DNA of 64,000 nucleotides from an uncultured bacterium (GTDB taxonomy: Bacteria > Patescibacteriota > Minisyncoccia > Phycocordibacterales > PALSA-1337), in assembly GCA_963701025.1 (NCBI GenBank), contig OY969557.1, positions 442,042-506,041 of the forward strand, given 5' to 3'. Below the pieces are notes generated by a model, which was not told the origin of the DNA, ran no database searches, and saw nothing but the letters and a program-made list of their open reading frames with translations. Every line of letters begins with the position of its first letter. The first letter of the stretch is position 1. The position numbers and the translations under genes were made by a program. Shown here piece after piece: positions 1,063 through 63,326 of this stretch.

Positions 1063-2677
1063 ATGACCGCAAAAAAATATTTTATCTACACCAGAAAATC
1101 TACCGACACCGAGGATCGGCAAGTCAGAAGCCTTGCCGACCAGCTCTCCGAGCTGCGCGAGCTCGCCAGAAAGGAGCAGATCGAGGTCATGGATACCTTC
1201 ATTGAGAAGCAGACTGCCAAGATTCCTGGTAGGCCAGTATTCGCGGAGATGTTAGAGCGTATAGAGGCCGGCGAGGCCTCCGGTATCCTCGCTTGGCACC
1301 CCGACAGGCTCGCTCGCAACTCGGTTGATGGAGGAAAGATCATCTACTTAGTGGATACTGGGCATGATCACAGACCTGAAGTTCCCGACATTCTGGTTTG
1401 ATTCGACACCACAGGGTAAATTCATGCTCTCGATCGCTTTTTCACAGTCGAAATATTATGTCGACAACCTATCGGAAAATGTTAAGCGCGGTTTCCGCCA
1501 GAAATTGAAGAACGGCATCTGGCCACAGAAGGCTCCGATTGGATATTTGAATGACAAAAAGACCAAGCTCATCACCATTGACCCCGATAAGGCTCCTCTG
1601 ATCAGGAAAACCTTCGAGGCCTACGCCACTGGCACATATACCCTCTCCGGATTGCGTAAGGCTATGGGCGAGCTTGGTCTCACAGGTCACGGTGGCAGAG
1701 ATCTTTCCATTTCAAACTACCAGTATCTTCTCAAAAACCATCTCTACTACGGCCTCATATATTTCCATGGAGAGTTTTGGGAGGGCAAACATGAGCCCAT
1801 CATCACAAAGAAGCTGTATGACACGGTTCAAGAGGTCATGACGCATAAAAGCAAGCCTCAACATGAGGGAGGATTGAAACCATATGTATATCGCGGACTA
1901 TTCAAGTGCGCCGAGTGCGGATGTTGCATCACCATTGAGACCAAGAAAGGTCATAACTATTTGAGATGTACAAAGCGCAAAGGACCATGTTCGCAAAAGT
2001 ATGTCCGCGAGGAGGCTATGACTGATTTGATCAAAGAGGAACTGAAGAAAGTATCTTTGTCTGATGCTGTAGCAGATTGGCTCATCGCAGAGGTTGAGAA
2101 AGACCGCGCCATAGACGACAATTCATCGAAAAACCAGATTCAGAAGGTCAGTGACGACGTTGTGGCAATCAACACTAAGCTCGACAAACTCATGACGGCG
2201 TACCTTGAAAACGCTCTCACACTAGAGGAATACCAGACTACCAAGAACAAATTAGTGACCGAAAAGCAGATTTTGAAGGATAAACTGGCATCTTTCGGGC
2301 GGGTCTCGACCAGTCGGTTCGAACCGGTCATCGATTTCCTAAACGACTGTAGACAGGCCGGTATTTTGGCGGAAAGCACGGATGCGGCGAAAATTCGCTC
2401 ATTCTTCCAAAAAGTCGGTTCGAACCCACTCGTCCGCGACCGCGCCCTCGTTTTTTCGCCTCGGGCACCCTTCGCCTTCGTCACCCAAATCCCCAAAAAC
2501 ACCAGCAAAGAAGCGGGCGGGGCGGAAGGGGGGTTTCAGGGGGGAATTCCGCCCCGCCCTCCGCACGTGCGATGCATCTCGCCTTTTTCGGGCGATTTTG
2601 AGTTTTCTGAAAAATTGCTGCGGGACTTGGACTCGAACCAAGATAACATCCTCCAGAGGGATGTGTCCTACCATTAG
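1063..2677 (+). CDS. large serine recombinase (resolvase domain + recombinase domain + zinc ribbon), frameshifted near 1380; 3' end uncertain
   Basis: N-terminus YTRKSTDTEDRQVRSLADQ ... LAWHPDRLARN is a serine recombinase catalytic domain. It continues in the +1 frame as ITDLKFPTFWFDSTPQGKFMLSIAFSQSKYY plus a CxxC..C zinc ribbon. The ORF tail overlaps the antisense tRNA-Gln and is probably spurious beyond about 2480. Confidence 0.8.
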
Positions 2678-2688
2678 ACGATCCCGCA
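2618..2688 (-). tRNA. tRNA-Gln(CUG)
   Basis: Cloverleaf with a U1:A72 pair, a G73 discriminator, a GGTTCGAGTCC T-arm and anticodon loop CUCUGGA. Confidence 0.85.
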
Positions 2689-4072: not shown

Positions 4073-5838
4073 TTATTCCTTTATTCTTTTATTCCTTGCG
4101 TTCATTCCCTTCGCCGCTTTGATAAATTCAGTGAACAATGGGTGCGGCATGAGGGGCCGAGCCAGGAATTCCGGATGGAACTGGGTGCCGAGAAAGAACG
4201 GGTGCGCACTGCGCGGCAATTCGGCTATTTCCATGAGAGTGCCGTCGGGAGACTTGCCCGAAAATACAAGACCGCCCTTTTCAAGCTTTTCTATGTATTT
4301 CGGATTGACCTCATAGCGGTGGCGATGGCGCTCTTTGATGGTGGTCGTCGGCTTCGACAATTTCTTGCCTTGGAAATAAGAATAGGCTTCCTGGGCTATA
4401 GTGCCCTTGCCAAGCTTAGCCGGATAGAGACCCAGTCGCATGGTGCCGCCGTAATTCCCCTCTGCTATCTTCTTTTTTTGGTCGGGCATGATGTCTATGA
4501 CCGGATGCGGTGACTTAGGGTCTATCTCCGCCGTGTGGGCGCCGTGGAGTCGCAAGACGTTCCTGGCGAATTCCACAGTCATGAGCTGCATGCCGTAGCA
4601 CAGGCCGAAATACGGTATACCCTTCTTCCGGGCGTAGTTGATGACTGCGAGCTTGCCCTCGATGCCGCTCTCGCCGAAGCCGCCGGGCACGATGATGCCG
4701 TCGAACGAAAGGAGGTTGGAGTAAGGAGAATGAGGCAAGGATGATTCGGTTTCCGAGTTTTTTCTTCTTTCTCCCTGCTTCCTGCTCCCTTCGCCTTGCC
4801 CTCAAAATCGCGGGCATTCACCGTATGGATGACCGCCTTGACCTTGTTGGCGTAAGCCGAAAATTTGATGGCTTCCAAAACCGAGATGTATGAGTCAGAC
4901 AAGATGAAATCCCCTGTATTGAAATATTTGCCCACGATGGCGATGTTGACGATGTTCTCGGAATGATCCTTGATGCCCTTTGCCATCTTTTTCCAAGCTT
5001 GGAATCTTTTATCCGTCTTCCGTGCATCCAAACCTATAGATTTCAAAAGCAACTCCGCTAAGTGGTCTTTTTCAAAATTTATCGGAACGTCATATATGCT
5101 TTCTATATCAGGCGCAGATATGACATGCTTTGGCAGAACATTGCAAGTAAAGGCGATCTTATCCTTGCGTTTCTGATCCAATGCGATCGGTCCTCTGGCT
5201 ATGATGAAATCGGCCTGCACCCCGTAGCTGTTCAACTGCTTCACGGCATTTTGGGTAGGCTTGGATTTCATCTCGCCTATCGTGCCCGGTACCGGAAGAT
5301 AAGAGACCATGATGAAGACCACTTCATGTGGATGCCTTATTTTTAGAACGCGCGCCGCCTCGATGAACATGACATTCTGGTAATCTCCTACCGTCCCTCC
5401 GATCTCGACAATCGTGACATCAGATTTATTTATCTTGGCGCTATGTTCTATCCGCCGGACAATCTCTTCACGGACATGGTCCGCATCGACGAATCGACCG
5501 CCGTATTCCAACGCTCGTTCCTTATCGATTACGCGCTTGTAGACCATGCCACTGGTGATGTAGTCGTCGGCGGTCAGGTCGCGGCCCAGGAAGCGCTCGT
5601 AATTTCCCATGTCCTGGTCCGTCTCAAGACCGGAATCGAGGACGAAGACCTCGCCGTGCTCGGTCGGATTCATGGTGCCGGCGTCCACGTTCAGGTATGG
5701 GTCCACCTTGACCAGATTGACCTTGTAGCCTTTGGCGGAAAGGAGCGTGCCGATAGAGGAAGTGGCTATGCCCTTGCCGACGCCGGACATCACGCCGCCG
5801 ATGACGAAGATGTATCTGTGGGGACTCGGCTTCTTCAT
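4073..5838 (-). CDS. pyrG: CTP synthase, interrupted by a 1-nt frameshift inside a GA-rich insertion (about 4745-4800)
   Basis: N-terminal synthase domain (GVGKGI..., DPYLNVDAG) in one frame. GATase domain (GIIVPGGFG, LCYGMQ, HPEF) in another. The shift falls in gaagaaaaaactc. Confidence 0.9.
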
Positions 5839-7439: not shown

Positions 7440-7448
7440 TTTAGATAA

Positions 7449-7481
7449 TTAGGTCAATTAGAAATTAGATCAATTTACAAA
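7449..7481 (+). repeat. intergenic repeat TTAGGTCAATTAGAAATTAG(ATCAATTTACAAA), copy 1
   Basis: The same 20-33 nt motif recurs at 8191-8210 (reverse complement), 8602-8643, 25236-25250 (reverse complement, partial) and 46218-46238. Confidence 0.7.
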
Positions 7482-8190: not shown

Positions 8191-8229
8191 CTAATTTCTA
8201 ATTGACCTAATTACCTAATTGACCTAAGG
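8191..8229 (-). repeat. intergenic repeat copy 2 (reverse-complement orientation, 1.5 copies)
   Basis: ctaatttctaattgacctaa plus ttacctaattgacctaa. Forms a perfect 20 bp inverted pair with 8602-8621. Confidence 0.7.
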
Positions 8230-8585: not shown

Positions 8586-8601
8586 TTAGAACTTAGATCA
8601 A

Positions 8602-8643
8602 TTAGGTCAATTAGAAATTAGTTTAATTAGATCAATTTACAAA
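8602..8643 (+). repeat. intergenic repeat copy 3 (with 9 nt internal duplication)
   Basis: ttaggtcaattagaaattag tttaattag atcaatttacaaa, immediately 3' of the prfB stop. Confidence 0.7.
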
Positions 8644-9565: not shown

Positions 9566-9641
9566 TGGAGCCAAAGCCCGGGATCGGACCGGGGACCTTC
9601 GCTTTACGAAAGCGACGCTCTACCAACTGAGCTACTTTGGC
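9566..9641 (-). tRNA. tRNA-Thr(CGU), CCA encoded
   Basis: GCCAAAGTAGCTCAGTTGGTAGAGC...CTTTCGTAAAG (anticodon CGT)...GGTCCGATCCCGGGCTTTGGCTCCA. Confidence 0.85.
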
Positions 9642-10405: not shown

Positions 10406-10470
10406 ATGATCTGGTTTAACTACCAAAACAGCTACAACGGCATTTTACTTTAAAAATAAAAGAACTTCTG

Positions 10471-10544
10471 CGCGCCCGATGGGACTCGAACCCACGACCT
10501 CTCCCGTGACAGGGGAGCGTTCTAGCCAGCTGAACTACGGGCGC
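10471..10544 (-). tRNA. tRNA-Asp(GUC)
   Basis: GCGCCCGTAGTTCAGCTGG...CCTGTCACGG...GGTTCGAGTCC, G73 discriminator. Confidence 0.9.
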
Positions 10545-10610
10545 ATATGCGTGCGACTCCAGCGCACGGACAGCCAGTAATGTAGCAGAAACGGGACGAA
10601 AAACAAAGGG

Positions 10611-10684
10611 TGCCGAGGGTGGGACTCGAACCCACAACCTGTCGCTTATGAAACGACTGCTCCAACCGATTGAGCTACCTCGGC
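10611..10684 (-). tRNA. tRNA-Met(CAU) (elongator, or Ile2 if lysidinylated)
   Basis: GCCGAGGTAGCTCAATCGG...anticodon loop TTCATAA...GGTTCGAGTCCCACCCTCGGCA. Confidence 0.8.
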
Positions 10685-10791
10685 AACATTGGATACAATA
10701 AAGGAAAAACGGCCGATGCGCAATCATCATTTGCAATCAGCCTGACAAAGTGGCATACTAGGCCAATCGTTTCGTCGCTGTTTCGTCCCAT

Positions 10792-10863
10792 CGCGGGGTA
10801 GAGCAACGGTAGCTCGTCAGGCTCATAACCTGAAGATTGCCGGTTCGATTCCGGCCCCCGCAA
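10792..10863 (+). tRNA. initiator tRNA-fMet(CAU)
   Basis: Near-identical to E. coli tRNA-fMet (CGCGGGG...CTCATAA...CCGGCCCCCGCAA) with the C1:A72 mismatch. The anticodon stem has A:U at 29:41. Confidence 0.85.
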
Positions 10864-11543: not shown

Positions 11544-13043
11544 TTATTCTATCTCGCCGAGGAAATCTTTGCCCGCCTCGAAAAGGGTTTTCTCATCCCC
11601 GTGCCTGGCCGTCAGCTGGAGTCCCATTGGCAGAGGCGGGTTTTTTCCTTCCTGCTTCCTGCTTCCTGCTTCCTGTCCCATCGGCACTGATATCGCCGGC
11701 ATGCCAGTCAGGTTGGCGGTCACGGTGAATATGTCCTCGAGATACATGGCCATAGGATCGCTCGCTTTCTCGCCGATCTTGAAAGCCGGAGAAGGCGCCG
11801 TCGGCGTGAGGATGAGGTCGGCTCCTCCGCCAGCCGGATCGAACGCTTCTATGAAATCATCCGTGATCATCCGGCGCACTGCATTGGCCCGGTTGTAATA
11901 TGCGTCGTAATATCCGGACGAGAGGACGTAGGTTCCGAGAAGGATGCGCCTGATGACTTCCCTGCCGAAGCCCGCCCTCCGGCTCTTGAAATAATCGTCT
12001 ATGCCGTCTTTGCCGTCCACGTGCAGGCCGTATCTCATGCCGTCGTAGCGGGCCATGTTGGAGGAGACTTCGGCGAAGTTAAGGATATAGTAGACCGGCA
12101 GGGCGTATCCGTTGGCCGGCAATTCTATGTCTTTGATCTCATAGCCGAGGCTTTTGAATCTTTCTTCGGCCGCTTCAAAAGATTCTTTTACGCGTGCGTC
12201 TATGCCGCCCATAGCCAAAAAAGCTCGCGGGATCCCAATGATTGGTTTTTTTTCTCCTTTCTCCTTTCTACTTTCTACTTTCTCTTTTATAGTCGTGCCG
12301 TCGTGGGCGTCTTTGCCTCGGATAGCATTGAAAATTATCTCGGCGTCTCCCACTGTCTTGGCTATCGGACCGATCTGATCAAAAGAGGAAACCGCGGCCA
12401 TAAGCCCGTACCGGGAAACGGCTCCGTACGTCGGTTTCAATCCGACGACTCCGCAGAAGCTCGACGGCTGTCTGATAGAACCGCCCGTGTCCGATCCGAG
12501 AGCGGCCAAAGCCATGCCCGAAGCGACTGCCGCAGCCGAGCCGCCGGAAGTGCCTCCGGGCACCCGTGAAAGATCATGCGGATTCTTGGTCGGCCCGTAG
12601 GCGGAATTTTCCGTGGAGCCGCCCATGGCGAATTCGTCCATGTTGGTCCGGCCGAGGAACACCGCTCCTTCCCTGCCGAGTTTGGCGATGACGGTGGCAT
12701 TGTATGTCGCTTGGTATTTCTCCAGGATCTTGGAAGCCGAGCTCGCGATCTTGCCCTGTATCAGGATATTATCCTTGATAGCCAATGGGATGCCGCACAA
12801 TGCCGGTATCGGCTGGTTATTTTTCTTGCACTTGGCGATCATGGCGTCGGCTTTTTTCGCGGCTTCGATCGCGTCATCGAAGACTTCCAGGTAGGCGTGG
12901 ATGTCTTTATTTTTTGCGGCAATTTGGTCCAGATACGCTTGCGTCAATTCGACCGCCGTAAAGTCGTCATCGACAAGATGTTCGTGGGCTTTTTTGATGG
13001 TGAAGGTGGTGATGTCTATCTTCATGGTATTCGAAAGTGTCAA
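11544..13043 (-). CDS. gatA: Asp/Glu-tRNA amidotransferase subunit A (two in-frame GA-rich inserts)
   Basis: Amidase signature GGSSGGSAAAVA. Full-length 499 aa. Confidence 0.95.
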   Translation of the reverse strand: MTLSNTMKIDITTFTIKKAHEHLVDDDFTAVELTQAYLDQIAAKNKDIHAYLEVFDDAIEAAKKADAMIAKCKKNNQPIPALCGIPLAIKDNILIQGKIASSASKILEKYQATYNATVIAKLGREGAVFLGRTNMDEFAMGGSTENSAYGPTKNPHDLSRVPGGTSGGSAAAVASGMALAALGSDTGGSIRQPSSFCGVVGLKPTYGAVSRYGLMAAVSSFDQIGPIAKTVGDAEIIFNAIRGKDAHDGTTIKEKVESRKEKGEKKPIIGIPRAFLAMGGIDARVKESFEAAEERFKSLGYEIKDIELPANGYALPVYYILNFAEVSSNMARYDGMRYGLHVDGKDGIDDYFKSRRAGFGREVIRRILLGTYVLSSGYYDAYYNRANAVRRMITDDFIEAFDPAGGGADLILTPTAPSPAFKIGEKASDPMAMYLEDIFTVTANLTGMPAISVPMGQEAGSRKQEGKNPPLPMGLQLTARHGDEKTLFEAGKDFLGEIE

Positions 13044-13410: not shown

Positions 13411-15537
<2,127 letters not shown>

Positions 15538-25662: not shown

Positions 25663-27424
25663 CTACAATTTGTTCACTTCCTCAAAAGGAATGGTCTTCT
25701 GGAATGCTTTGATGATGGCGTCTTCCTTGAGGGTGAGCATGCCCTTGCCGCGGGCGATCTTGAGGATCTCCGATTCTACCGGATTGGTCAGGATGGCGTG
25801 CTCGATATCCTTGTCCATAGTGAACATCTCGAAGACGGCCATGCGGCCGCGGGTACCTTTGGGACAGTCCGGAGTGGGCTTCACTTTCATGACCGTGTCT
25901 GCGAACGGTATGTCCTTCTTGTATTGAGCGGGAAGGTCGGCGAAAGACCGGTCGATGAAGGCTTTCATGCTGCCGTCGACCGGCACCTGTTCGCCGCCGC
26001 CGGGGACGAGGATGCCGACCAGGCGTTGGGCTACTGCGAGGATGAGAGTCGGGGCGATGAGGTATGGGTCGACGCCCATGTCGATCAAGCGTGGGATGAC
26101 GCCTGCCGCGTCGTTGGTGTGCAGGGTGGAGAAGCACAAGGTGGCCGGTCAAGGCGGCCTGGACGGCGAGCTGGGCGGTCTCTTTATCGCGGATCTCACC
26201 CACCATGATGATATCCGGGTCCTGGCGCAAAGTCGTGCGCAAGCCGGTATCGAACGTGTAGCCGATCTCCGGTCTGACTTGGGACTGGCTGACGCCTTCT
26301 ATGGTGTATTCGACCGGATCCTCCAGCGACAGGACGTTGTAGCTCTCGCGGTCCATTTCCGAGAGCAAGGAATAGAGGGTCGTGGATTTTCCGGAGCCTG
26401 TGGGCCCCGTGATGAGGATCATGCCGTAAGGCTTGTTGATGGCCTCGCGGAGCATGGCCAGATTCTTCGGCGACATGGCCAGCTGATCCACGGTGCGGAC
26501 TCCTTTGGCCTGATCCAATATGCGCATCTCGACCTTCTCGCCGTAGTACGAGGGAAATGTAGACACGCGGAAGTCGATACGACGGCCGTCGATCCTGGCG
26601 GAGAAGCGTCCGTCTTGAGGCTTGCGCTTCTCGTCCAAGCGCATGGACGAGAGGACTTTGATGCGGGCGACTACGGCGGAATGGACTTGCGGCGGCAAGA
26701 CGAGCGACGTGTTCAGGATGCCGTCGACGCGGAAGCGGACGCGGACTTTGTCCCGCATGTGCTCGATATGAACATCGGAGGCCTCCCCCTCCACGGCATA
26801 GCGGACGATTGTGGCGACGATCTTTACCACCGGAGCGTCCTCGATGATGAGGGACTCGTCGCCGGCGGCATTGCCCGCGGCATCCGTCTTGCTTTTCACG
26901 CCCCTACCGCCTTTTGCCTGGGCCATGTCTTCCCTTTTCAAGCTGTCGGTATCGACTGAAAGCTCCGTTTCGAGCTCCGAGAGGGCCTGGGTCACTTCGC
27001 CGGTCATGCCTTTGTACATCTCTATGACCTTGTTGAAATCGTCGAGAGTGATGAGGAACATCTTGTACGGGATATTCTTCTTGGCCGCCACGAAATTGAT
27101 GGCGTCGCGCGCCTCCATGTTGTCCGGATCGACGATGCCGACTTCGAGGACTCCGTCCTTGAGGCCGACCGGCGCGAAACGGTAGTGGACGGCAGATTCT
27201 TCCGGTATATAGTCGAGGGCCTCGAAGGGTATGGGAGACTCGGCGATGGACCGTATGGGCATGTTCAAAAATTCGCCTCGGGCGGCGAGTATATCGTCCG
27301 GCTTGACGCCGCGGGCGATCAGAGCCTCGTCGAGCGAAGCGCCGGAACCGGTCTGCGCTCGGATGGCGCGGATGTCATCCTTGGCAATAAGGTTCTTCTT
27401 GAGGAGGATGTCTATGACGCTCAT
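25663..27424 (-). CDS. pilB: type IV pilus assembly ATPase PilB (GspE), 1-nt insertion frameshift near 26145
   Basis: T2SE_N domain, Walker [10 protein letters not shown], then ALTGHLVL | STLHTNDA split across frames (extra C in gtgcttCtcc). Confidence 0.85.
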
Positions 27425-27502
27425 GGTGAGGGTATATGGTTCAGGGTATAGGGTTCAGGGTATAGGGTTAGCGGTTTGCTATACCCTCCACCCTATACCC
27501 TT
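27425..27502. repeat. nested direct/inverted repeats GGGTATAGGG(TTCAG) x3 / CCCTATACCC
   Basis: ggtatatggttcagggtatagggttcagggtatagggttagcggtttgctataccctccaccctataccc. Hairpin-forming, lies between a small membrane gene and the pilB start. Confidence 0.6.
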
Positions 27503-31087: not shown

Positions 31088-31389
31088 TGAGGTTCGGTTA
31101 TGGCGATTTAATGGAGGGTGAGCGCTTCTCTTTTTCCTATCTTTTTCTAATTGGGAATTAAGGTTATTTTTTCAACAGGAATAAGCCATATTATCAAAGC
31201 TGAAGAGCCTTAATTCTCATTTAGAAAAACATACCCTTCCAAGCATCCCGCACCCCCCAGAAACGACTTAAATCTCGAAAGCGTGTCTGTTAAACAACCA
31301 CCTTCACGAACCTCCGCTTCCCTATCTTGAGCACGACCGTCTCGGATGGAATGAAATTCGGATCTGTTATTTTTTCGTCTTTCTCCGTT

Positions 31390-32491
31390 TTAACAGCACC
31401 ATCGAGCGACTAACCGCCGCCATTCTGCCTTCGACGGCACGATCTTCGCCTTGATGAGCGCGTCGGCAAGCGCTTCGCCTGAAGCCATCTTTATTTCCAT
31501 GACATCTTCGGGAATACCGCCTTTGGCGAACGTATTCTCGAACGCTTCCTCGGCGGCCGCTGCGGCTTTTTCTCCGTGGAATCTCTTGACGATGTCGGCG
31601 GCGATGACAGCTTTGGCCGCGCGCGGACCGCGAGCCATGATGCTGTCCTTCTCGGACATCGGGATCCGGGTGCAATTCAGGAACAGAGGCTCGATCATCG
31701 GGTCGGGCAAAGCCATGAGCGCGCCGAAGAGATCGTTAGCCGGCTGATCGATGAAGACGCCGGTGCCGTTGGACTTGGACATGAGCTCGACCCGTGGTCG
31801 GATTGGCGACGAGGTTGAGGGCGATGACGAACTTCTCCTTGTTCTTCAGTTGTTTTGAGCAATGTGCGTCCCGCCAAAGCGTTGAATATCTGGTCGGTGC
31901 CGCAGAGCTCGGCATCGACGTCCATGGCCACGCTGTCATAGCCCTGCATCAGAGGGTACATGAATTCATGGAGATGGATCGGCGCGCCTTCCTTGAGGCG
32001 CTTTTGGTACATGTCGCGCTCGATCATCTGTTGGACGGTGAAATTGGAAGCGATATCGAGGATGTCGGCGAATGAGAGCTTGGCGAGCCATTCGGAATTG
32101 TATTTGACCAAGGCGGGGTTCACGTTATCTTTGAAATCGACGATCGGACTTATCTGCTCGCATCCAACCGGCCATGTTCTTCTTTACTTCTTCGGCGGAA
32201 AGTTGCTTGCGCGCGGCCGTCTTGTCCGAAGGATCGCCTATCAGTGCCGTAAAATCGCCGAAAAGAATGATGATCTTCATGGCCAAGCTGACGCAACTCC
32301 TCCAGGAATATCAGATTCTTGGCATGGCCTAGATGGATGGCGGTGAATGTCGGGTCAAGGCCGTAATATATGCGCATGGGTTCGCCGGATAGAAGCTTGC
32401 TCGTAAGAGCATCCTTGGACGGAAAAGCTTCCACGACCGTGCCACGGGCGAATATTTCGTCTATCTTCTTTTGGTCGGTGACTATTTTCAT
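31390..32491 (-). CDS. tyrS: tyrosyl-tRNA synthetase, about 4 single-nt frameshifts
   Basis: HIGH motif (TAIHLGH) and KMSKS in different frames. Junctions at about 32275, 32152, 31850 and 31795. Confidence 0.8.
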
Positions 32492-32739
32492 GCTTTCTTC
32501 GGCCAGACCTTGGCCACGGCCAGAAGATATATGATCTCCAAAATACCCAGCGTATTCACGATGAGAAGGATAACGAACCACCACTTCTCGTTGCGGCGAG
32601 CCGCATGCCAGAGCGCATACCCTTTGAGGACAATAACGACTAGGAATAGCAGGCCGAAGAGTGCCCCGAATGTGCCGAAAGACATGAACGGGCTCATGCC
32701 CCAACCGCCGTATCCGCCGTAATAGAGTGAATGCATCAT
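32488..32739 (-). CDS. small membrane protein with PLDc_N-like motif
   Basis: KWWFVILLIVNTLGILEIIYLL. 4 nt overlap (ATGA) with the tyrS start. Confidence 0.5.
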   Translation of the reverse strand: MMHSLYYGGYGGWGMSPFMSFGTFGALFGLLFLVVIVLKGYALWHAARRNEKWWFVILLIVNTLGILEIIYLLAVAKVWPKKA

Positions 32740-36667: not shown

Positions 36668-36754
36668 CGGAGACGGTGGGATTCGAACCCACGAGGAGGT
36701 TGCCCCCCTAACACCTTAGCACGGTGCCGCTTTCGACCGCTCAGCCACGTCTCC
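36668..36754 (-). tRNA. tRNA-Ser(GCU)
   Basis: Long variable arm, anticodon loop GUGCUAA, GGTTCGAATCC T-arm. Confidence 0.85.
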
Positions 36755-36818: not shown

Positions 36819-39149
36819 ATGTGCGATAATGTCGGCATGATATTGGACGCCTCGATATCCGAACAATTCCGCATCACCCCGATGCAGAAAGCGGCTCTGA
36901 AGAAGCTCGGCATGGAGACGATCCGCGATCTGCTCTATCACTTCCCCGTCCGCTACGGCGACACGGCCGAAGCAAGGAACATAGATTCGCTGGCCCAAGG
37001 CGATACGGCTGTCATATTCGGGAAAATAACTGGCCTCAAGGCGAGCAAAGGATTCAAGACAAAGATGACCATGGCCGACGGCTACGTGGAAGATGAGACT
37101 GGCCGAGTCCACTGCGTCTGGTTCAACCAGCCCTACCTGGCCAAGATGACGCCCGAAGGAGTGCTCGTGCGCATTGAGGGAAAGATATCGCAGAGGAGAA
37201 AGAAGCAGGTAGAAGGAAGTATGGAGAAAGAAGAAAGCGGTAAGGAGAAAGGGGGTGGCGAACTGTACTTCTCCAACCCAAAGCTGGAAGTGGTGAATAA
37301 AGTGCCCATAGGCGTCGGTGATTCGCTTTTCGGCGCGGAAGGCGAAGACCATGCCCTATATCCGGTGTATCCGGAGTCGCGCGGCATCACTTCGAGCTGG
37401 CTTTACCACGCCATCCAAAAGATATTCAAAAGCGGCATATTGAATGAGATGGCCGACACTTTGCCGGGACACATCCTGGTCAAGTATCACCTGCCGAGCC
37501 TGAAGACCGCTCTCGTCTGGATACACGCCCCGCACAAGCGCGAAGACGCCCTGTCGGCCCGCAAGCGTTTTTCATTCGAGGAGATATTCACCATCCAGCT
37601 AGGGAAACAACAGGCGAGGGCGGAATACGAAGCCCATCCGGCATTCGCCGTGGAGACCGACGACGCTCACGTGGATGAATTCATCCGGCGCTTCCCCTTC
37701 CAGGCGACCGACGCCCAGCGCCGGGCTATCGGCGTCATAGTAGACGACATGCGCCGCGATCACGCCATGTCGCGCCTCTTGGAAGGAGACGTTGGCTCGG
37801 GCAAAACGGCCGTAGCCGCGGCAACGGCGTACGGCATCATCACTTCGAAGCCGCCGAAAAATACCGCGAATGTATTGGCAAAAGCGGCGAGCGGATCCGG
37901 CTTCACTCTGGCCAAGTCAGCCAGCGCCGCTGGCCGCGGAAATCTCCAAGTGGCCTACATGTGCCCGACCGAGATCCTGGCCACCCAGCAATTCGAGTCG
38001 TTCATACAATACTTTTCATACATGCCCATCCAGATCGGTCTCATCACCGGCTCCGGGTGCCGCAAATTCCCCTCCAAGGTCAATCCAAAGGGCTCGACGG
38101 ATATATCGCGTGCGCAATTATTGAAATGGGTCGAGAGCGGCGACATCCACGTCCTCGTCGGCACCCACGCTCTCATCCAAAAATCCGTCAAATTCAAGAA
38201 CCTAGCTTACTCCATCATCGACGAGCAACACCGGTTCGGCACGGCTCAACGGGCGGCGCTCATCAGGAAAAATCAATCGTCCTCCGGCGCAGGCACGAGC
38301 GGCGCTCTCGCCCCGCATCTTCTTTCCATGACCGCGACTCCCATACCGCGGACGCTCGCTTTAACCTTGTATGGCGACCTCGATCTGACCCTGCTCGACG
38401 AATCGCCGGCTGGCAGGAAGCCTATCATCACTGAACTGGTCCTGCCGGACGGCCGCCAAGAGGTCTACGAGAAAGTCCGCCGCGAATTGGCCGGAGGCCG
38501 TCAGGCATACGTCATCTGCCCGCGTATCGATGAACCGGACCCGGACAAGGAGCTCGCTTTGAACGCCAAATCGGTCAAAGAAGAGGCCAAACGATTGAAA
38601 AGATCTGTCTTTCCAGAATATGAGATCGGCGTACTGCACGGCAAGATGCCGGCCGCGGACAAGGAAAGCGTCATGGCCGATTTCAAAGACGGAAAGATAC
38701 GGATCCTTTGCGCCACGTCCGTGGTCGAGGTCGGAGTGAATGTGCCGAACGCGACCGTGATATTGATCGAAGGAGCAGAACGATTTGGCTTGGCGCAATT
38801 GCATCAATTGCGAGGCAGAGTGATGAGAAGCACGCATCAGGCCTATTGCTACGCCTTCACCGAGACTGACTCGGCTAAGTCCATAGAACGGCTGAAAGCC
38901 CTGCGGAATGCCAAGAACGGCTTCGAGCTGGCCGAGCTAGACCTGGCACAGCGCGGCTCCGGCGCCCTTGCCGGCATGCGCCAATGGGGCGTCTCCGACG
39001 TCGCCATGGAAGCTTTGAAGAATTTAAAGATGGTCGAAGCCGCCCGGACAGAGGCTATACGCCTCATAGAAGAAGACCATGAATTGTCCCGCTATCCCGA
39101 CCTCAAGAAAGAAGTAGCCGCGCGAAAGAAAGATCTCCACTTCGAGTGA
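36819..39149 (+). CDS. recG: ATP-dependent DNA helicase RecG (with GA-rich in-frame insert)
   Basis: Wedge domain, DEAD-like helicase motifs (GDVGSGKT, DEQHRFG), C-terminal helicase domain. Confidence 0.9.
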   Translation: MCDNVGMILDASISEQFRITPMQKAALKKLGMETIRDLLYHFPVRYGDTAEARNIDSLAQGDTAVIFGKITGLKASKGFKTKMTMADGYVEDETGRVHCVWFNQPYLAKMTPEGVLVRIEGKISQRRKKQVEGSMEKEESGKEKGGGELYFSNPKLEVVNKVPIGVGDSLFGAEGEDHALYPVYPESRGITSSWLYHAIQKIFKSGILNEMADTLPGHILVKYHLPSLKTALVWIHAPHKREDALSARKRFSFEEIFTIQLGKQQARAEYEAHPAFAVETDDAHVDEFIRRFPFQATDAQRRAIGVIVDDMRRDHAMSRLLEGDVGSGKTAVAAATAYGIITSKPPKNTANVLAKAASGSGFTLAKSASAAGRGNLQVAYMCPTEILATQQFESFIQYFSYMPIQIGLITGSGCRKFPSKVNPKGSTDISRAQLLKWVESGDIHVLVGTHALIQKSVKFKNLAYSIIDEQHRFGTAQRAALIRKNQSSSGAGTSGALAPHLLSMTATPIPRTLALTLYGDLDLTLLDESPAGRKPIITELVLPDGRQEVYEKVRRELAGGRQAYVICPRIDEPDPDKELALNAKSVKEEAKRLKRSVFPEYEIGVLHGKMPAADKESVMADFKDGKIRILCATSVVEVGVNVPNATVILIEGAERFGLAQLHQLRGRVMRSTHQAYCYAFTETDSAKSIERLKALRNAKNGFELAELDLAQRGSGALAGMRQWGVSDVAMEALKNLKMVEAARTEAIRLIEEDHELSRYPDLKKEVAARKKDLHFE

Positions 39150-41423: not shown

Positions 41424-41497
41424 TCCGCCCTCTTGGATTCGAACCAAGGACCGCAGAGGTATAAGCTCTGTGCTCTAACCAACTGAGCTAAGGGCGG
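41424..41497 (-). tRNA. tRNA-Ile(UAU)
   Basis: Anticodon loop CUUAUAC. GGTTCGAATCC T-arm. Acceptor stem CCGCCCT/AGGGCGG. Confidence 0.75.
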
Positions 41498-45332: not shown

Positions 45333-45698
45333 TGGTGGAGATGCGCGGAATTGAACCGCGGTGCAATCGAAGTTAGGTCGGCTGATTCTACGACGGTAGT
45401 ATCATTTGAAGTTTAATAGCCGTGGTGAAAAATAATACAAAATACACAGCCACGATCTCTAAGTTTCGGAGAAGAGGAGTGAGAAGCTCCCCTGCCCTAC
45501 ATCCGGGTTATTACGCCCGCTCTAGCGTATGGATCCCGCTAGAGAGACGCGCCCTTATACAAGAGCGAATGCGAAGTCCTTTGCTCCGAAATACGGAGAA
45601 ACAGAAGATTTAGCAATTAGGATTTCCGGCGGATTTACGAGTCACTGGCGCTCGCGCCGCGCGGCCGAAAACTGACGATTGTCGATGCCTGTCATCCC
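45333..45698 (-). ncRNA. ssrA: tmRNA (ssrA)
   Basis: 5' GGGGATGACAGGCATCGACA pairs with 3' ...CCGCGGTTCAATTCCGCGCATCTCCACCA (tRNA-like domain with CCA). Immediately downstream of smpB. Confidence 0.85.
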
Positions 45699-45757
45699 CA
45701 AGTATGAATTGAGAGATTGGGAATTGAATATTGATCTCCAATTTCCAATACCAATCC

Positions 45758-46198
45758 TCAATTGTCTTTCAATGTCCTCCTCATCTCGCGGTCGCTCTCG
45801 CGCTTCTTGATCGACGTCCTTTTGTCGTATTTCTTCTTGCCACGGACGAGGGCTACCTGAACTTTGATGAGATTGCGCTTAGTATATATCGAAATTGGTA
45901 CTATTGTCAAGCCTTTGCCTGCGTTGGCGAAGCCGGCGATCTCCTTCTTCGAGAGCATGAGGCGGCGCGGCCGGCGCGGATCGTAGTCCTTCGGCGTATT
46001 CTTCTCCTGATACGGCGGCACGAGCATATTCTGGACGAACGCCTCGCCGCCACGGACGATGGCGTATGAGCCTTCGAGCGAGCCGCGCTTCAATTTCAAT
46101 GATTTCACTTCGAAACCGAGCAACTCGATGCCAGCCTCGAACGATTCGAGGATCTCGTAATCGAAGCGGGCCTTGGAGTAATCGATGAGGGTGGGCAT
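45758..46198 (-). CDS. smpB: SsrA-binding protein
   Basis: 146 aa SmpB with basic C-terminal tail. Confidence 0.9.
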   Translation of the reverse strand: MPTLIDYSKARFDYEILESFEAGIELLGFEVKSLKLKRGSLEGSYAIVRGGEAFVQNMLVPPYQEKNTPKDYDPRRPRRLMLSKKEIAGFANAGKGLTIVPISIYTKRNLIKVQVALVRGKKKYDKRTSIKKRESDREMRRTLKDN

Positions 46199-51095: not shown

Positions 51096-52838
51096 CTAAT
51101 GAAACAGATTGTTGAACCAATCGACGATAGCATTCCAAACACTAGCAGTTGCCGCAGTTGTATGAATCATGGATGTTGTTTGAATCGAGCAGGTATGATC
51201 CGTTGTATTGAGCGCATAACCAGATGGGCATGAATACGCAGCCCTAGCCGGTGCAGTGGTCGTCGATGCTGCCGATGTCATGGAGCATGTATTATTCGAC
51301 ATCAAACCATATCCCGTCGGAGTCGGGCACGATTTGGAAGCGATGGCAGAAATCGTGCTCGTCTGACCGCCTATCACAGTTATGCAGGACTCTCCGGAGA
51401 GAGTGGCCCCGGTCGAACATGAGTATGTGACCGTGGCTGGCACAGTTATTGTCGTCGGTTGCGTCGACGATGATGCAGTCGGTTGTGTCGGTGCGGGTGC
51501 GGGTGATGCAGTTGCGGTTGTCGTCGAAGTCGCCGTGCTTGCGGGCGGAGTCGGAACTGTCGTGGTCGTCGCGACTGGAGCCGTCGGAGCCGTCAGCGCG
51601 GTGTCGAGCGTAGGAGCCTCTGGAGCCAATATCTGAACCGGCGGAGGCGACGCCGTCATAGCTCGGGGCGTCATAACACAGACAGCGGTGCTCGTCGCGG
51701 AGATGTTCAACGGATTGATCGACGCTGACGCGGCAAAGCAATAATTCGTCGAAGCGGACGGGCCGGTTGTCTGATACGACATGACGGCCGCGGTGACAAG
51801 AAGCATCCGGATCGATGGGGACGTTTGGGCCAAAGTATATCCGGATATGAGCGCGGAATCGCTGTCAGTCCACGAGATGTTGATCTGGCCGGATGAATTG
51901 ACGCTGGCCGTCAACACGGGAGCGGCCGGAGCGCCGAGAGTCAACAGATATGCGATCGGCGAATATGCCGAATATGTGCCGTCGGCGTACTGCACGCGCA
52001 CGCGATATTGATAATATATCGACGGAGCCAGACCGGTATCGGTGTATGATGCCGTATGCGCCGGCAGGCTGGCTATTTGCGATTGATAATATATCGACGG
52101 AGCCAGACCGGTATCGGTGTATGATGCCGTATGCGCCGGCAGGCTGGCTATTTGCGCTCCGTACGGCGCTCGTTCCACAAGGGCTGCACTCTCGACGGGA
52201 GAATTATCCGTCCATGTGAGAGTTCCGCCTCCTTTCACCTTCGCTACTGCCGTAAGCCCGGAAGGCGCTCCGGAAGCGGTCGTCGCGCACACCGGCGCGG
52301 TGGCCGCCGAACCGTTCACTGGATTGACGTATGACTGGACGGCGAAGCAGTACTTGGTGCCGGGCGAAAGGTTGGCGGTGTAGTACGTTCGAGCCGAGTA
52401 ATTCGCGACTGGTGATGACGGTACGGTGGCGAGAGAGGTGGAAGCGGGAGAGACTTCCGAGACCGCGTAGGAAGCGATGCCGGCGTCATAGTCGTACCAG
52501 GTGAGACCAATGGCTGACGAAGTGGTGGCGGAGGCGGAGAGAGATGGGGTGGAAGACTTGGCCGTCGTCACGGTCGTGGTAGCGGCATATGGTCCGTATC
52601 CCAATAACCCATATTGCAGGCGAACATTGTAGTAATAGGTAGTCGAGTTAGGAAGGCCTGTGTCAGTGTATGTCGTGCTCGTGGCTGTGCCAATGGAGGA
52701 ATATCCGGATGATTGAGAGGTCGAACGCTCGACATCGATACCTGTTATACCGGTCGCTCCGTTGTTGCTCCAAGTGAGCCTGACCTGGCCTTGGGTCGCA
52801 TTGGAAGATGTGAGACTGGTAGGTGTAGTGGAACTAAA
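51096..52838 (-). CDS. FN3-repeat segment of giant surface protein (continuous with 52745-54200 after a 1-nt shift)
   Basis: VRLTWSNN...YYYNVRL and YQYRVRV fibronectin-III signatures, T/S/P-rich linkers. Perfect 75 bp tandem duplication at 52006-52155. Confidence 0.6.
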   Translation of the reverse strand, partial: FSSTTPTSLTSSNATQGQVRLTWSNNGATGITGIDVERSTSQSSGYSSIGTATSTTYTDTGLPNSTTYYYNVRLQYGLLGYGPYAATTTVTTAKSSTPSLSASATTSSAIGLTWYDYDAGIASYAVSEVSPASTSLATVPSSPVANYSARTYYTANLSPGTKYCFAVQSYVNPVNGSAATAPVCATTASGAPSGLTAVAKVKGGGTLTWTDNSPVESAALVERAPYGAQIASLPAHTASYTDTGLAPSIYYQSQIASLPAHTASYTDTGLAPSIYYQYRVRVQYADGTYSAYSPIAYLLTLGAPAAPVLTASVNSSGQINISWTDSDSALISGYTLAQTSPSIRMLLVTAAVMSYQTTGPSASTNYCFAASASINPLNISATSTAVCVMTPRAMTASPPPVQILAPEAPTLDTALTAPTAPVATTTTVPTPPASTATSTTTATASPAPAPTQPTASSSTQPTTITVPATVTYSCSTGATLSGESCITVIGGQTSTISAIASKSCPTPTGYGLMSNNTCSMTSAASTTTAPARAAYSCPSGYALNTTDHTCSIQTTSMIHTTAATASVWNAIVDWFNNLFH

Positions 52839-54200
52839 TTACATGTCGTACCTGAAAGAGCATACCCTGCCGGACAAGCGTATTTCATGATCGCCAACGA
52901 TGTCGGGAGGGTACTACAGGTATTATTAGACGACAGGGCGTAGACTATGTAAGCGGTGTTGGGACATGAATAAGTAGCTGTGGCCGGTGTGGAAGTCGCC
53001 GAAGATATTCCCCCGCCAATGAGGTTGCATGTATTGCCTGATGGAGCATACCGATTATCAGGACATGTGTATCCGAGCACTGTCGCCAATGAAGTCGGGG
53101 TCGTGTTGCATGTATTCGATGATGAAAGGCTGTATATAGCGTAGCTGGTGGATGGACATTTATAGACGCTAGTGGCTGGCATGGTAATGGCAGTCGGAGC
53201 CCCTCCGTTCAAATTACATGTCGTACCGGAAAGCGTGTAGTTGCTGTCGGTGCACACGTATCCGAGTACATTGGCAAGCACAGTCCCATTAGCGCCGCCA
53301 TTGCACGTATTCGAGGATGTGAGACCATAAATGAAACCATTACCAACAGGACAGGCATATACGACAGTTGCGGGCTTACTAGTCGCCGTTGTGACTCCGC
53401 CATTGATGAGATTGCATGCCTTGCCTGACGGAGCATAGCGAGTATCAGAGCAGGTATAGCCTAATACCGACGCAAGAGTGAATTGTTGTGATGCATTTAG
53501 AGGAACGCAGACGTCTGATTGGATGATGGTCGCCGTACCGGTAGGACATGTGTACATGGTCGTGGCTGGTTCAACGATGGGTGATGGCGTTGCGTTGATA
53601 AGACATGTCGTGCCGGAAAGCGTATAGTTTGTGTCAGGACAGCTGTATCCGAACGCTACGGCTGGTATTATTGGTTTGCTGGTATCTATCTGACCAGAGC
53701 TAGTATATGGGGTGCATGTGTTTGACGACGAGCTGAATCCATAAATGAAACCATTACCAACAGGACAGGCATATACGACAGTTGCGGGCTTACTAGTCGC
53801 CGTTGTGACTCCGCCATTGATGAGATTGCATGCCTTGCCTGACGGAGCATAGCGAGTATCAGAGCAGGTATAGCCTAATACCGACGCAAGAGTGAATTGT
53901 TGTGATGCATTTAGAGGAACGCAGACGTCTGATTGGATGATGGTCGCCGTACCGGTAGGACATGTGTACATGGTCGTGGCTGGTTCAACGATGGGTGATG
54001 GCGTTGCGTTGATAAGACATGTCGTGCCGGAAAGCGTATAGTTTGTGTCAGGACAGCTGTATCCGAACGCTACGGCTGGTATTATTGGTTTGCTGGTATC
54101 TATCTGACCAGAGCTAGTATATGGGGTGCATGTGTTTGACGACGAGCTGAATCCATAAATACCGGCGGGGCATCTGTAGACGGGTGTTGCAGCTGCTGAC
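52745..54200 (-). CDS. Cys-rich repeat segment (Y.CP.GY.LSGTTC units) of giant surface protein
   Basis: Repeated CPxG...C modules. Two identical 414 bp tandem copies at 53326-53739 and 53740-54153. Confidence 0.6.
53326..54153. repeat. 2 x 414 bp perfect in-frame tandem duplication
   Basis: 'cataaatgaaaccattacca...' recurs at 53326, 53740 and 54154 (period 414 = 138 codons). Confidence 0.8.
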
Positions 54201-54672
54201 CACTAACGATCACTTGTATGTCCCCAACCTCGGTCGTCGGGTCTCCTGCCCCGTTGCCAGTTACTGTTATAGTGTACGGTGTATCAGTCCAGTCGCTATC
54301 AAATCCACTGACACTTACTTTATATGTTCCATTAGGTGTCGTCGTCGGTACGGAAAATATAAGAGATGATCCATCACTGAGGAACATCATCTATTCCATA
54401 ATATGTACCATCGCTTGTTGTCTGACCGTGTGCTTTTGGTATCAGATTATTCAAAAAATTCCATACAGCATCAAACGTTGAATGTACATTTGCTTCAAGG
54501 ACAGAAGACGGGACCAATGAGGTCGGAGAAACTGGGGTAAGCTTGATCATATTACCAGATGTATCGAATCCTGAACCGGAGACTTTGAAAGTGTTAGTCG
54601 TGGCTCCAGTTACGGGGATGACGCCGCTTACAGCAGGTGGCGCTAAAAAAGTACTGTGATGGTAGAAAAATA
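54100..54672 (-). CDS. N-terminal Ig-like/beta-rich fragments of the giant surface protein (two frames)
   Basis: TNTFKVSGSGFDTS...GTYYGIDDVPQ (54374-54672) and GTYKVSVSGFDSDWTDTPYTITVTG (54100-54390) are related beta-strand repeats in different frames. Confidence 0.4.
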
Positions 54673-58944: not shown

Positions 58945-59216
58945 TGCGAACTATTATACCCTATATGCGAAAGAGCCGGGGGAGAAAATCTTTGAATCAT
59001 GGGTGAAGGATCTTATTCCTTTCTAGAAAATTTTTATATACATTCAATCCAATCTATGTTTTAAAATACCTACGTTTAGAGGCATGCTTTGACAAACTAC
59101 ACAACAAAATAATGACACACCGTGTCAAGCGGAAATATGCCGATGGGACATCCCCGTCCCCTTCGGTTCTTTGCTTTAAAAGCGCCGGTTTTTCTCCCTG
59201 CTTCTTTCTTCTTATC

Positions 59217-63294: not shown

Positions 63295-63326
63295 AGTAAT
63301 TGAAAATTGGAATTGAGAATTGGTGA

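Follow-up and report, generated by a model that had tools for sequence, protein, structure and literature searches.

Heptanucleotide repeat arrays within conserved genes of a Patescibacteria genome

GA-rich tracts at six loci

We analysed a 64-kb stretch of DNA from an uncultured bacterium (contig OY969557.1 of GenBank assembly GCA_963701025.1, positions 442,042 to 506,041; hereafter the window), in which short GA-rich tracts interrupt or adjoin conserved genes. The genome carrying the window is of a Patescibacteria type (Paceibacteria/Parcubacteria-like), and the named relatives of its GatA and RecG proteins come from metagenome-assembled genomes of Paceibacterota or Patescibacteria. A sequence-only reading had reported six such tracts, in pyrG, gatA (two sites), ligA and recG and just after the stop codon of secY, and had described them as (GAR)n triplet runs that often end in A-runs. 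All six tracts were found at the reported coordinates, with a coding strand that is 80–86% purine, and domain and profile searches upheld the identities of the host genes: pyrG (split), gatA, ligA, recG, and secY followed by adk. The triplet description did not survive, because the unit has 7 nt and each of the three frames is used to read it. Of the six loci of this GA family, five lie inside conserved, translated coding sequence and one, the post-secY tract, is non-coding; a predominantly intergenic placement near start or stop codons does not describe them. The tracts are listed below with the corresponding rows from Tandem Repeats Finder (TRF) and with their open reading frames (ORFs) where these matter.

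4073–5838, minus strand: pyrG, CTP synthase, in two ORFs (4579–5838 and 4073–4738)
4757–4799, minus strand: pyrG tract, six degenerate heptamers (GGCAAGG, CGAAGGG, AGCAGGA, AGCAGGG, AGAAAGA, AGAAAAA(A)C), lag-7 match 0.61; TRF 4771–4790, unit CAGGGAG, 2.9 copies, 84%
11641–11676, minus strand: gatA site 1, four perfect copies of CAGGAAG and then GGAAAAAAC, encoding QEAGSRKQEGKN in the C-terminal hairpin loop; TRF 11648–11675, unit CAGGAAG, 4.0 copies, 100%
12246–12288, minus strand: gatA site 2, (AGAAAGT)2(AGAAAGG)2 AGAAAAAAAA, encoding KEKVESRKEKGEKK in an inter-domain linker; TRF 12251–12288, unit GGAGAAA/GTAGAAA, 5.4 copies, 90%
14766–14807, minus strand: ligA tract, 4.7 perfect copies of GGAGAAA in an adenylation-domain loop; TRF 14769–14801, unit AAAGGAG, 4.7 copies, 100%
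37190–37252, plus strand: recG tract, decayed heptamer or 14-mer array (consensus GCAGGGAGAAAGAA) in a wedge-domain loop, lag-7 match 0.57; TRF 37190–37252, 8.4 copies of a 7-mer (65%) or 3.1 copies of the 14-mer (76%)
59191–59215, minus strand: post-secY tract, GA-rich, directly after the secY stop codon, non-coding, carrying GAAGCAGGGAGAAA

Five of the six tracts are period-7 tandem repeats of one unit family, G-N-A-G-R-R-A, and three of these are perfect, with 4 to 5 copies. The base match at lag 7 was 0.57–0.70 in the five coding tracts, against 0.36–0.46 at lag 3. When written in one register, the units read AGCAGGA/AGCAGGG, AGAAAGG/AGAAAGT/AGAAAGA and a terminal AGRAAAA. The window contains four perfect runs of period 7 that reach 2.7 copies or more, compared with 0.01 in dinucleotide-preserving (Markov) simulations, and no such run was found in the window at periods 5, 6 or 8–12. 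A sliding-window scan for imperfect arrays likewise returned period 7 only, and at these loci only. The pattern (GNAGRRA)3 with up to two mismatches gave 22 overlapping matches (0.12 expected), which covered all six loci and no other part of the window; runs of 19 nt or more that are purine or pyrimidine throughout numbered 4, with 0.19 expected. Three or more head-to-tail copies, as in a heptanucleotide simple sequence repeat (SSR), are present at both gatA sites and in ligA (4.0, 5.4 and 4.7 copies by TRF), and one unit recurs at many loci as in a genome-specific family, namely at six in 64 kb, this census of the GA family covering the window only.

Across the clade, the loops that hold the coding tracts are all hypervariable, both in length and in sequence, as judged from alignments of 40 GatA, 13 LigA, 36 RecG and 3 PyrG relatives. 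The segments were said to form loops rich in E, K and G, and they are indeed E/K/G/R-rich and lie in variable loops. That they are lineage-specific inserts was borne out for gatA site 1, ligA, pyrG and recG, where the window proteins have a surplus over solved structures (3h0l, 2owo, 1vco and 1gm5), but not for gatA site 2, where there is no net difference in length. At gatA site 1, Aquifex GatA (3h0l) has a 10-residue gap, and the loop is hypervariable among the 40 relatives. The length at site 2 equals that of most relatives, with Aquifex GatA two residues longer; the unit AGAAAGT at this site contains a T, a third copy of it would put TAG in frame, and only two copies are present. An AlphaFold model of GatA made from 40 close homologues placed both sites in coil (residues 242–267, and 455–473 between two strands), with a mean predicted local distance difference test score of 62.6, which is too low for confident loop placement. 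The hypervariability among relatives of GatA, LigA and RecG would also favour a surface-loop position. In LigA, the E. coli protein (2owo) is 7 residues shorter at the tract, and the loop varies among the 13 relatives. The PyrG loop is about 22 residues longer than that of T. thermophilus CTP synthase (1vco). RecG residues 110–178 did not align with T. maritima RecG (1gm5), and the length of this loop in the 36 relatives, counted from the alignment, ranges from a few residues to about 90.

LigA carries two additional lineage-specific loop extensions, at residues of about 545–565 (the HhH region) and 110–122; since perfect heptamer arrays occupy the HhH site in the relatives L007 and L214, the HhH extension of the window may be a fully decayed array. 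Among RecG relatives, seven proteins (P0145, P0148, P0149, P0169, P0185, P0195 and P0240) share a conserved in-frame element, RDGASIAQSQQALTRVG (...RDGASIAQSQQALTRVGE.RVP...), at two different hypervariable loops, and both loops are occupied in two of the proteins. This element is absent from the window and recalls the Rickettsia palindromic elements.

The near-identity reported between the post-secY and pyrG tracts was confirmed, in that both contain the exact 14-mer GAAGCAGGGAGAAA. The post-secY tract is too short to show periodicity. It was also considered as a lost C-terminal tail of SecY and rejected as such, because nearly all of the 120 SecY relatives listed are 423–424 aa long. The orthologous segment in L089 and L090 is GA-rich too and ends in GAAAAAC. 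The distance from secY to adk is 272 nt in the window (58945–59216), about 330 nt in a 92%-identical relative and 4 nt in the 89%-identical L091, from which the entire spacer of about 270 nt is missing. The GA tract opens the extra spacer, in which a hairpin and a TTGACA...TGTCAA palindrome are also found.

Arrays in relatives, strand orientation and array edges

Heptamer arrays recur in the same genes of related genomes, with other units. At gatA site 1, where the window has (CAGGAAG)4, the relative L213 (GatA P0018) carries a perfect (GGAGAAA)4.3. L214 has (GATTCAG)4.6 in ligA and (AAGATTC)5.1 and (AAAATTC)4.9 in gatA. The ligA of L081 has a decayed (AAGCAGG)n at the loop that holds (GGAGAAA)4.7 in the window, and that of L007 has (TTTTCAA)3, encoding FSIFNFQ. 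The GA unit family was found in the window, L213, L081 and L084, and an ATTC family in L214, L002 and L007. In pyrG, L084 (73% identical) has six heptamers in the same loop, in phase with the six of the window; they close with GGA GGA AAA AAC (G G K N) in L084 and with GAA GAA AAA A-C in the window. Units 3 and 4 read AGCAGGA/AGCAGGG in the window and AGTAAGG/AGTAAGA in L084, so that neighbouring units are more alike within a genome than across genomes, as would fit ongoing turnover by slippage.

The preference for seven held at the level of proteins and of whole contigs. Octapeptides that can be encoded exactly by 24 nt of a perfect heptamer repeat numbered 7 in 120 GatA homologues (0.15 expected), 2 in RecG homologues and 0 in SecY homologues; in the same test no octapeptide was encodable by repeats of period 4 or 5, and one, in RecG, by period 8. 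In 426 kb of the clade we counted 12 period-7 arrays (28 per Mb), two of period 8, one of period 11 and none of other periods. In 1.04 Mb from unrelated bacteria outside the candidate phyla radiation (CPR), period 7 still led with 5.8 per Mb and other periods were near zero; a genome-contig search with GatA, in which no genome was closer than about 70% identity, served mainly as a non-CPR control set. Period specificity and above-chance frequency were therefore observed both in the window and in related loci. A literature search found no report of heptamer repeats in Patescibacteria or the CPR. Perfect heptamer arrays also occur in L002 (5645–5665 and 6905–6936) and L007 (1354–1385 and 2007–2035) in the leader peptides of type IV prepilin-like genes, with units CAATTTT, AAGATTC, AATTTTC and ATACGAA just before the G/F cleavage motif, which is a classic position for phase variation.

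The tracts were said to be always polypurine on the sense strand. Within the window this is correct, and each of the ten intra-ORF runs of 14 nt or more that consist of purines or pyrimidines alone is purine on the sense strand; as a rule it fails, because the same genes hold AATTTTC, AAGATTC and AAAATTC arrays in relatives. We rejected purine loading of the sense strand in general as the cause, since the window ORFs are 50.1% purine overall. At least 120 contigs matched (GGAGAAA)4 in a metagenome scan, and a crude count gave 11 sense, 22 antisense and 51 unclear cases, with no global sense-strand rule. A pattern emerged only once these arrays were sorted by their position in long ORFs. Sense arrays of at least four units encode GERRKEK at internal or C-terminal positions in LeuRS (editing domain), FtsA, QueA, RmlD, a 5'-nucleotidase and two proteins with type IX secretion system (T9SS) tails. 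Antisense arrays of at least four units encode FLLSPFS and lie only in the first 40 codons of the open frame, in signal peptides or 5' untranslated regions (UTRs). The placement of sense and antisense arrays in long ORFs split 8/8 versus 2/8 (Fisher p = 0.007). The Bacteroidota-like contigs concerned are as follows.

Sense (GGAGAAA)n: L146, L156, L158, L172, L108, L125, L145
Antisense (GGAGAAA)n: L165, L153, L094, L152, L162, L114, L106, L148

Many of the (GGAGAAA)n contigs come from two samples (Ga0209628 and Ga0209737), which suggests one or a few repeat-riddled genomes. The encoded peptide appears to act as a filter on orientation: units made of purines only, having no T, give no stop codon in any frame and encode only K, E, R and G.

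The edges of the arrays proved to be ancestral codons. At gatA site 2 the A-run (GGA GAA AAA AAA CCA) corresponds to a conserved G-K-K-K-P motif, which L001 reads as GGA AAA AAG AAA CCT. The A-run at gatA site 1 (GGA AAA AAC) corresponds to a conserved [D/E]-G-K-[K/D] motif, which L007 reads as GAT GGA AAA AAG. Both Lys motifs are kept in relatives without any repeat. The leading codons of the recG tract (CAG AGG AGA AAG AAG) are likewise a conserved, ancestral QRRKK. Codon-level comparisons with relatives revealed no target-site duplications. That the arrays abut ancestral purine-rich codons suggests runs of Gly-Lys codons as their seeds.

The pyrG frame break and other features of the window

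The split of pyrG had been attributed to a frameshift in one of the A-runs, and the break indeed maps to an A6 run (4758–4763) that is one base short relative to L084. The first ORF matched NCBIfam PRK05380 at positions 3–336 and the second at 339–531, and adding one A to the run gave a 588-aa PyrG that aligned end to end with relatives and with PDB 1vco. The restored protein, which reads ...EEKNSETESS...PYSNLLSFDGIIVPGG, can be aligned colinearly with L084 and L081, and L081, L084 and L086 each have pyrG as one ORF. A programmed –1 frameshift of the dnaX type was rejected, as the upstream frame is GAA GAA AAA ACT, which leaves the A-run out of X XXY YYZ phase, and as the shift is not conserved, L084 reading GGA AAA AAC in frame. 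Most likely an A7 run in the last unit has lost one A through assembly or sequencing error; a very recent lesion is less likely. We favour assembly error because tyrS in the same window (31350–32500, minus strand) has five single-base frame breaks, near 32280, 32140, 31850, 31785 and 31410.

The tyrS changes all go in one direction, and none lies at a long homopolymer. The frame-joined TyrRS is colinear with solved TyrRS structures, including the HIGH and KMSKS motifs, and the breaks stem from indel errors in the local assembly or else from decay of an essential gene in the very recent past. A large serine recombinase on the plus strand is also split into overlapping ORFs, one with a Resolvase N-terminal domain (1063–1401) and one with a Recombinase domain and zinc ribbon (1364–2677), and a tRNA gene (2618–2688, minus strand) overlaps its 3' end. 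Two 100%-identical tandem duplications (75 bp x2 at 52007–52156 and 414 bp x2 at 53325–54160) lie in or beside genes for large fn3-containing and hypothetical proteins (51096–52604, 52745–53971 and 54100–54390) and may reflect either genuine duplication of domains or an artefact of assembly. Indel problems are clearly present in the assembly.

Beyond the GA family, two further heptamer arrays were detected in the window.

27425–27501, minus strand: period-7/14 array of other units, CCCTATA/CCCTGAA, intergenic (TRF rows 27429–27469 and 27479–27501)
63298–63323, minus strand: degenerate CAATTYY heptamers just upstream of the rpsH (S8) start codon (TRF)

The first array faces an inverted copy (AGGGTATAGGGT...ACCCTATACCCT) and lies just upstream of a type IV pilus ATPase gene (Pfam T2SSE, 25682–27424); it shows that the heptamer arrays of this genome extend beyond GA units and beyond coding DNA. 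(A)GGGTATA motifs akin to it precede the starts of secY and adk, and their complement TACCCTATA is found upstream of ligA. The units of the second array belong to the family of the AATTTTC arrays in relatives, and the Pfam S8 match there starts at residue 104 of a long ORF.

Three intergenic regions (7441–7475, 8198–8227 and 8586–8637) contain 8–9 bp tandem repeats of the TTAGATCAA/TTAGATAA/CTAATTGAC type, and related AATTGACCTAAT motifs stand upstream of other genes (45758–46198 and 46255); these 8–9 bp repeats may be operator or promoter elements. A Shine-Dalgarno (SD)-like core precedes only 3 of 74 ORFs when first start codons are used as calls, so SD signalling seems weak in this organism. 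A TATAAT-like box lies 5–12 nt before the ATG of several ORFs (upstream sites at, for example, 16692, 24110, 29120, 34773, 50129 and 58944), and the two observations together suggest that leaderless or near-leaderless mRNAs are widespread. The window also holds an ordinary tmRNA gene (45333–45699) and seven tRNA genes (2618–2688, 9569–9641, 10471–10863, 36668–36754 and 41424–41497). Some long listed ORFs overlap tmRNA or tRNA genes and are not genes (e.g., 10416–10736).

Origin of the arrays and comparison with known repeats

We consider it probable that the tracts are G-N-A-G-R-R-A heptanucleotide microsatellites of a Patescibacteria genome that arose by slippage from purine-rich seeds, passed a coding filter and later decayed. 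The seeds would be short purine-rich codon runs already present in permissive surface loops, such as Gly-Lys-Lys or Glu-Gly-Lys (GGA AAA AAR). Slipped-strand mispairing during replication would duplicate 7-nt steps beside them into arrays of three to six units. Because seven is not a multiple of three, such an array is translated in all three frames and gives 7-residue peptides (e.g., GERRKEK and QEAGSRK), and it would survive only where its full length leaves the frame intact and the protein tolerates the encoded residues. In conserved enzymes, purine-only arrays, being stop-free and encoding K, E, R and G, would persist in the sense orientation only and in loops already variable in length. 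Arrays would then decay by point substitution, as in recG and pyrG, or give way to new ones, so that perfect arrays would be young and degenerate arrays old. The A-runs are ancestral Lys codons that flank and possibly seed the arrays, not appended tails. Slippage, filter and decay together would explain the period, the loop locations, the ancestral array edges, the perfect and degenerate ages and the concerted look of the pyrG arrays. Of the shared insertion or expansion mechanism that had been proposed, the part that stands is expansion of a microsatellite type, given the tandem repeats, three of them perfect; retro-insertion does not.

Several observations weigh against this account. Within one genome, the units of separate loci resemble each other more closely than would be expected if slippage acted locally and independently, as seen in AGCAGGR and AGAAAGR in the window, in the 14-nt identity between pyrG and the post-secY tract, and in AAGATTC/AAAATTC/CAGATTC in L214; composition and the stop-free filter explain this likeness only partly, since 69% of heptamers pass that filter. 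No protein filter can account for the purine-rich transcribed strand of the post-secY tract, which is non-coding, and with a sense strand that is 50% purine overall in ORFs, purine loading leaves the orientation unexplained. At gatA site 2 there is a repeat without gain in length, so simple expansion is not the whole story there. No indels were seen between near-identical contigs (99.6–100%), in overlaps that hold no perfect array and thus give low power.

Because slippage does not fully explain the likeness of units across loci, we kept as a rival the dispersal of a pre-formed repeat, by ectopic template switching, by gene conversion between tracts or by an enzyme that writes heptamers beside A-rich anchors. 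Units are indeed alike across loci within a genome and different between genomes (GA in the window and closer relatives, ATTC or ATTTTC in L214, L002 and L007); the exact 14-mer is shared by pyrG and the post-secY spacer, though the 92%-identical L089 lacks it there; and at gatA site 1 the different arrays of three genomes each adjoin an A-run anchor. Dispersal would also resemble the heptamer families of Xanthomonas, Nostoc and Beggiatoaceae, and of the TAACTGA repeats it is said that "no mechanism is evident" (PMC4679880). We nevertheless regard dispersal as unlikely, since flanking signatures (target duplications, terminal inverted repeats) are absent, array edges grade into ancestral codons (QRRKK, GKKKP, EGK), the unit at a given locus differs among relatives, the orthologous pyrG arrays have kept number and phase over a long divergence, and no candidate enzyme or template was found in the window. 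More doubtful still is the broader proposal that an active, sequence-selective process writes genome-specific 7-nt arrays beside A-rich anchors, essential genes included, in this Patescibacteria clade and some Bacteroidota-like organisms. If true, it would be a regular source of new loop segments (sense) and signal-peptide cores (antisense), and the recurrence of one family would reflect dispersal or a polymerase-specific 7-nt step, not independent local accidents.

The remaining explanations have far less in their favour. As signals in RNA or translation, the tracts would pause ribosomes through SD-like AGGAG repeats, provide internal starts or stimulate frameshifting, with the pyrG break a programmed –1 event or transcriptional slippage. 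(AAAGGAG)n is strongly SD-like, AGGGAG, which also precedes the E. coli dnaX site, lies 7 nt upstream of AAAAAAC in pyrG, and all tracts, the non-coding one included, are on the transcribed strand. Such a role is very improbable given the phase of the pyrG A-run and the in-frame reading of the same array in L084, the scarcity of SD-like cores before ORFs, the non-SD units at the same loops of relatives, and the five frame breaks of tyrS without any such motif. It is just as hard to believe that assembly or polishing created the tracts, or that they are ordinary K/E-rich loops of low complexity which no repeat mechanism produced. The tyrS breaks, the split recombinase and the two identical duplications do attest assembly problems elsewhere, but four of the five coding arrays stay in frame, comparable arrays occur in independent assemblies of other samples (L084, L213, L214 and L081), and the periodicity statistics exclude mere compositional bias. 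Least credible of all is the insertion of a mobile or reverse-transcribed element with a poly-A tail, the retro-insertion that the sequence-only reading had raised on seeing the A-runs. Four of the six tracts do end in A5–A8 followed by C. The idea is refuted for the gatA sites, where the A-runs are Lys codons conserved in repeat-free relatives; no target-site duplications were found, gatA site 2 has no extra length, and the interior is a tandem 7-mer in place of unique sequence.

The arrays are a remarkably clear example of essential genes that tolerate non-triplet repeats. Coding DNA is in general expected to be purged of microsatellites of this kind, since a single slippage event there destroys the gene; a streamlined genome, about 0.9 Mb in size, nonetheless has perfect 4–5-copy heptamer arrays in ligA and gatA. 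The same array type recurs at the same loops in relatives, and in LeuRS, FtsA, QueA and RmlD of unrelated bacteria. It offers a concrete, testable route to short disordered loops in otherwise frozen enzymes and possibly to hydrophobic signal-peptide cores, and clean material for the old question of why seven is favoured as a bacterial repeat unit. The tracts and their flanking A-runs are also spots where assemblies break genes, which calls for caution among annotators of uncultured genomes.

Among known systems, the closest are the bacterial heptanucleotide SSRs, a class of long SSRs with 5–11-nt units: the tracts share with them few-copy tandem 7-nt units and a period 7 that stands above all other non-triplet periods. 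Unlike surveyed SSRs, the heptamers of the window lie in frame inside essential housekeeping genes of a reduced genome. Heptamers are also known in heterocystous cyanobacteria as short tandemly repeated repetitive (STRR) sequences. As relayed from Mrazek 2007 by PMC4679880 and PMC4692102, heptamers are the most abundant class of long SSR in most bacterial genomes, polymerase slippage with a footprint of roughly 7 nt has been proposed as the cause, and repeats with units in multiples of three are the likeliest to lie inside genes. Genome-specific heptamer families have been described in Xanthomonas (GGGAATC) and Nostoc (GGGGA(T/C)T) (PMC4692102), and a TAACTGA family in Beggiatoaceae, Cyanobacteria and Bacteroidetes (PMC4679880). 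Like these and the STRR families, the window has one unit family at many loci, with 2–6 or more copies and strand-oriented to neighbouring genes. The published families differ in being mainly intergenic, under-represented in coding sequence, and G-quadruplex-forming or beside start codons, whereas five of the six GA loci are coding and their purine-rich unit is unable to form a G-quadruplex.

In Borg genomes, repeat units inside ORFs are always divisible by three, virtually unique to each locus and tens of nucleotides long (PMC9879509). The tracts resemble these amino-acid tandem repeats in the A-rich coding strand, the disordered K/E-rich segments and the A-rich seeds proposed for them (PMC9879509), and differ in a 7-nt unit that is not divisible by three and is common to several loci. 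With phase-variable contingency loci they share a non-triplet SSR in coding sequence in which a change of one unit shifts the frame, and the prepilin leaders of L002 and L007 are a typical position for such loci. Contingency loci, however, lie in the 5' part or promoter of dispensable surface or restriction-modification genes, whereas the arrays of the window are mid-gene in gatA, ligA, pyrG and recG, which it would be lethal or costly to switch off. Rickettsia palindromic elements are in-frame selfish insertions in conserved proteins, palindromic, mobile and about 100–150 bp long. Like them, the tracts add a peptide to conserved enzymes, in what are probably surface loops, where it would be tolerated away from the active site; unlike them, they are tandem repeats of 25–60 nt without a palindrome. 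The tracts are an in-frame, coding form of the heptanucleotide microsatellites known from bacteria and not a new kind of element.

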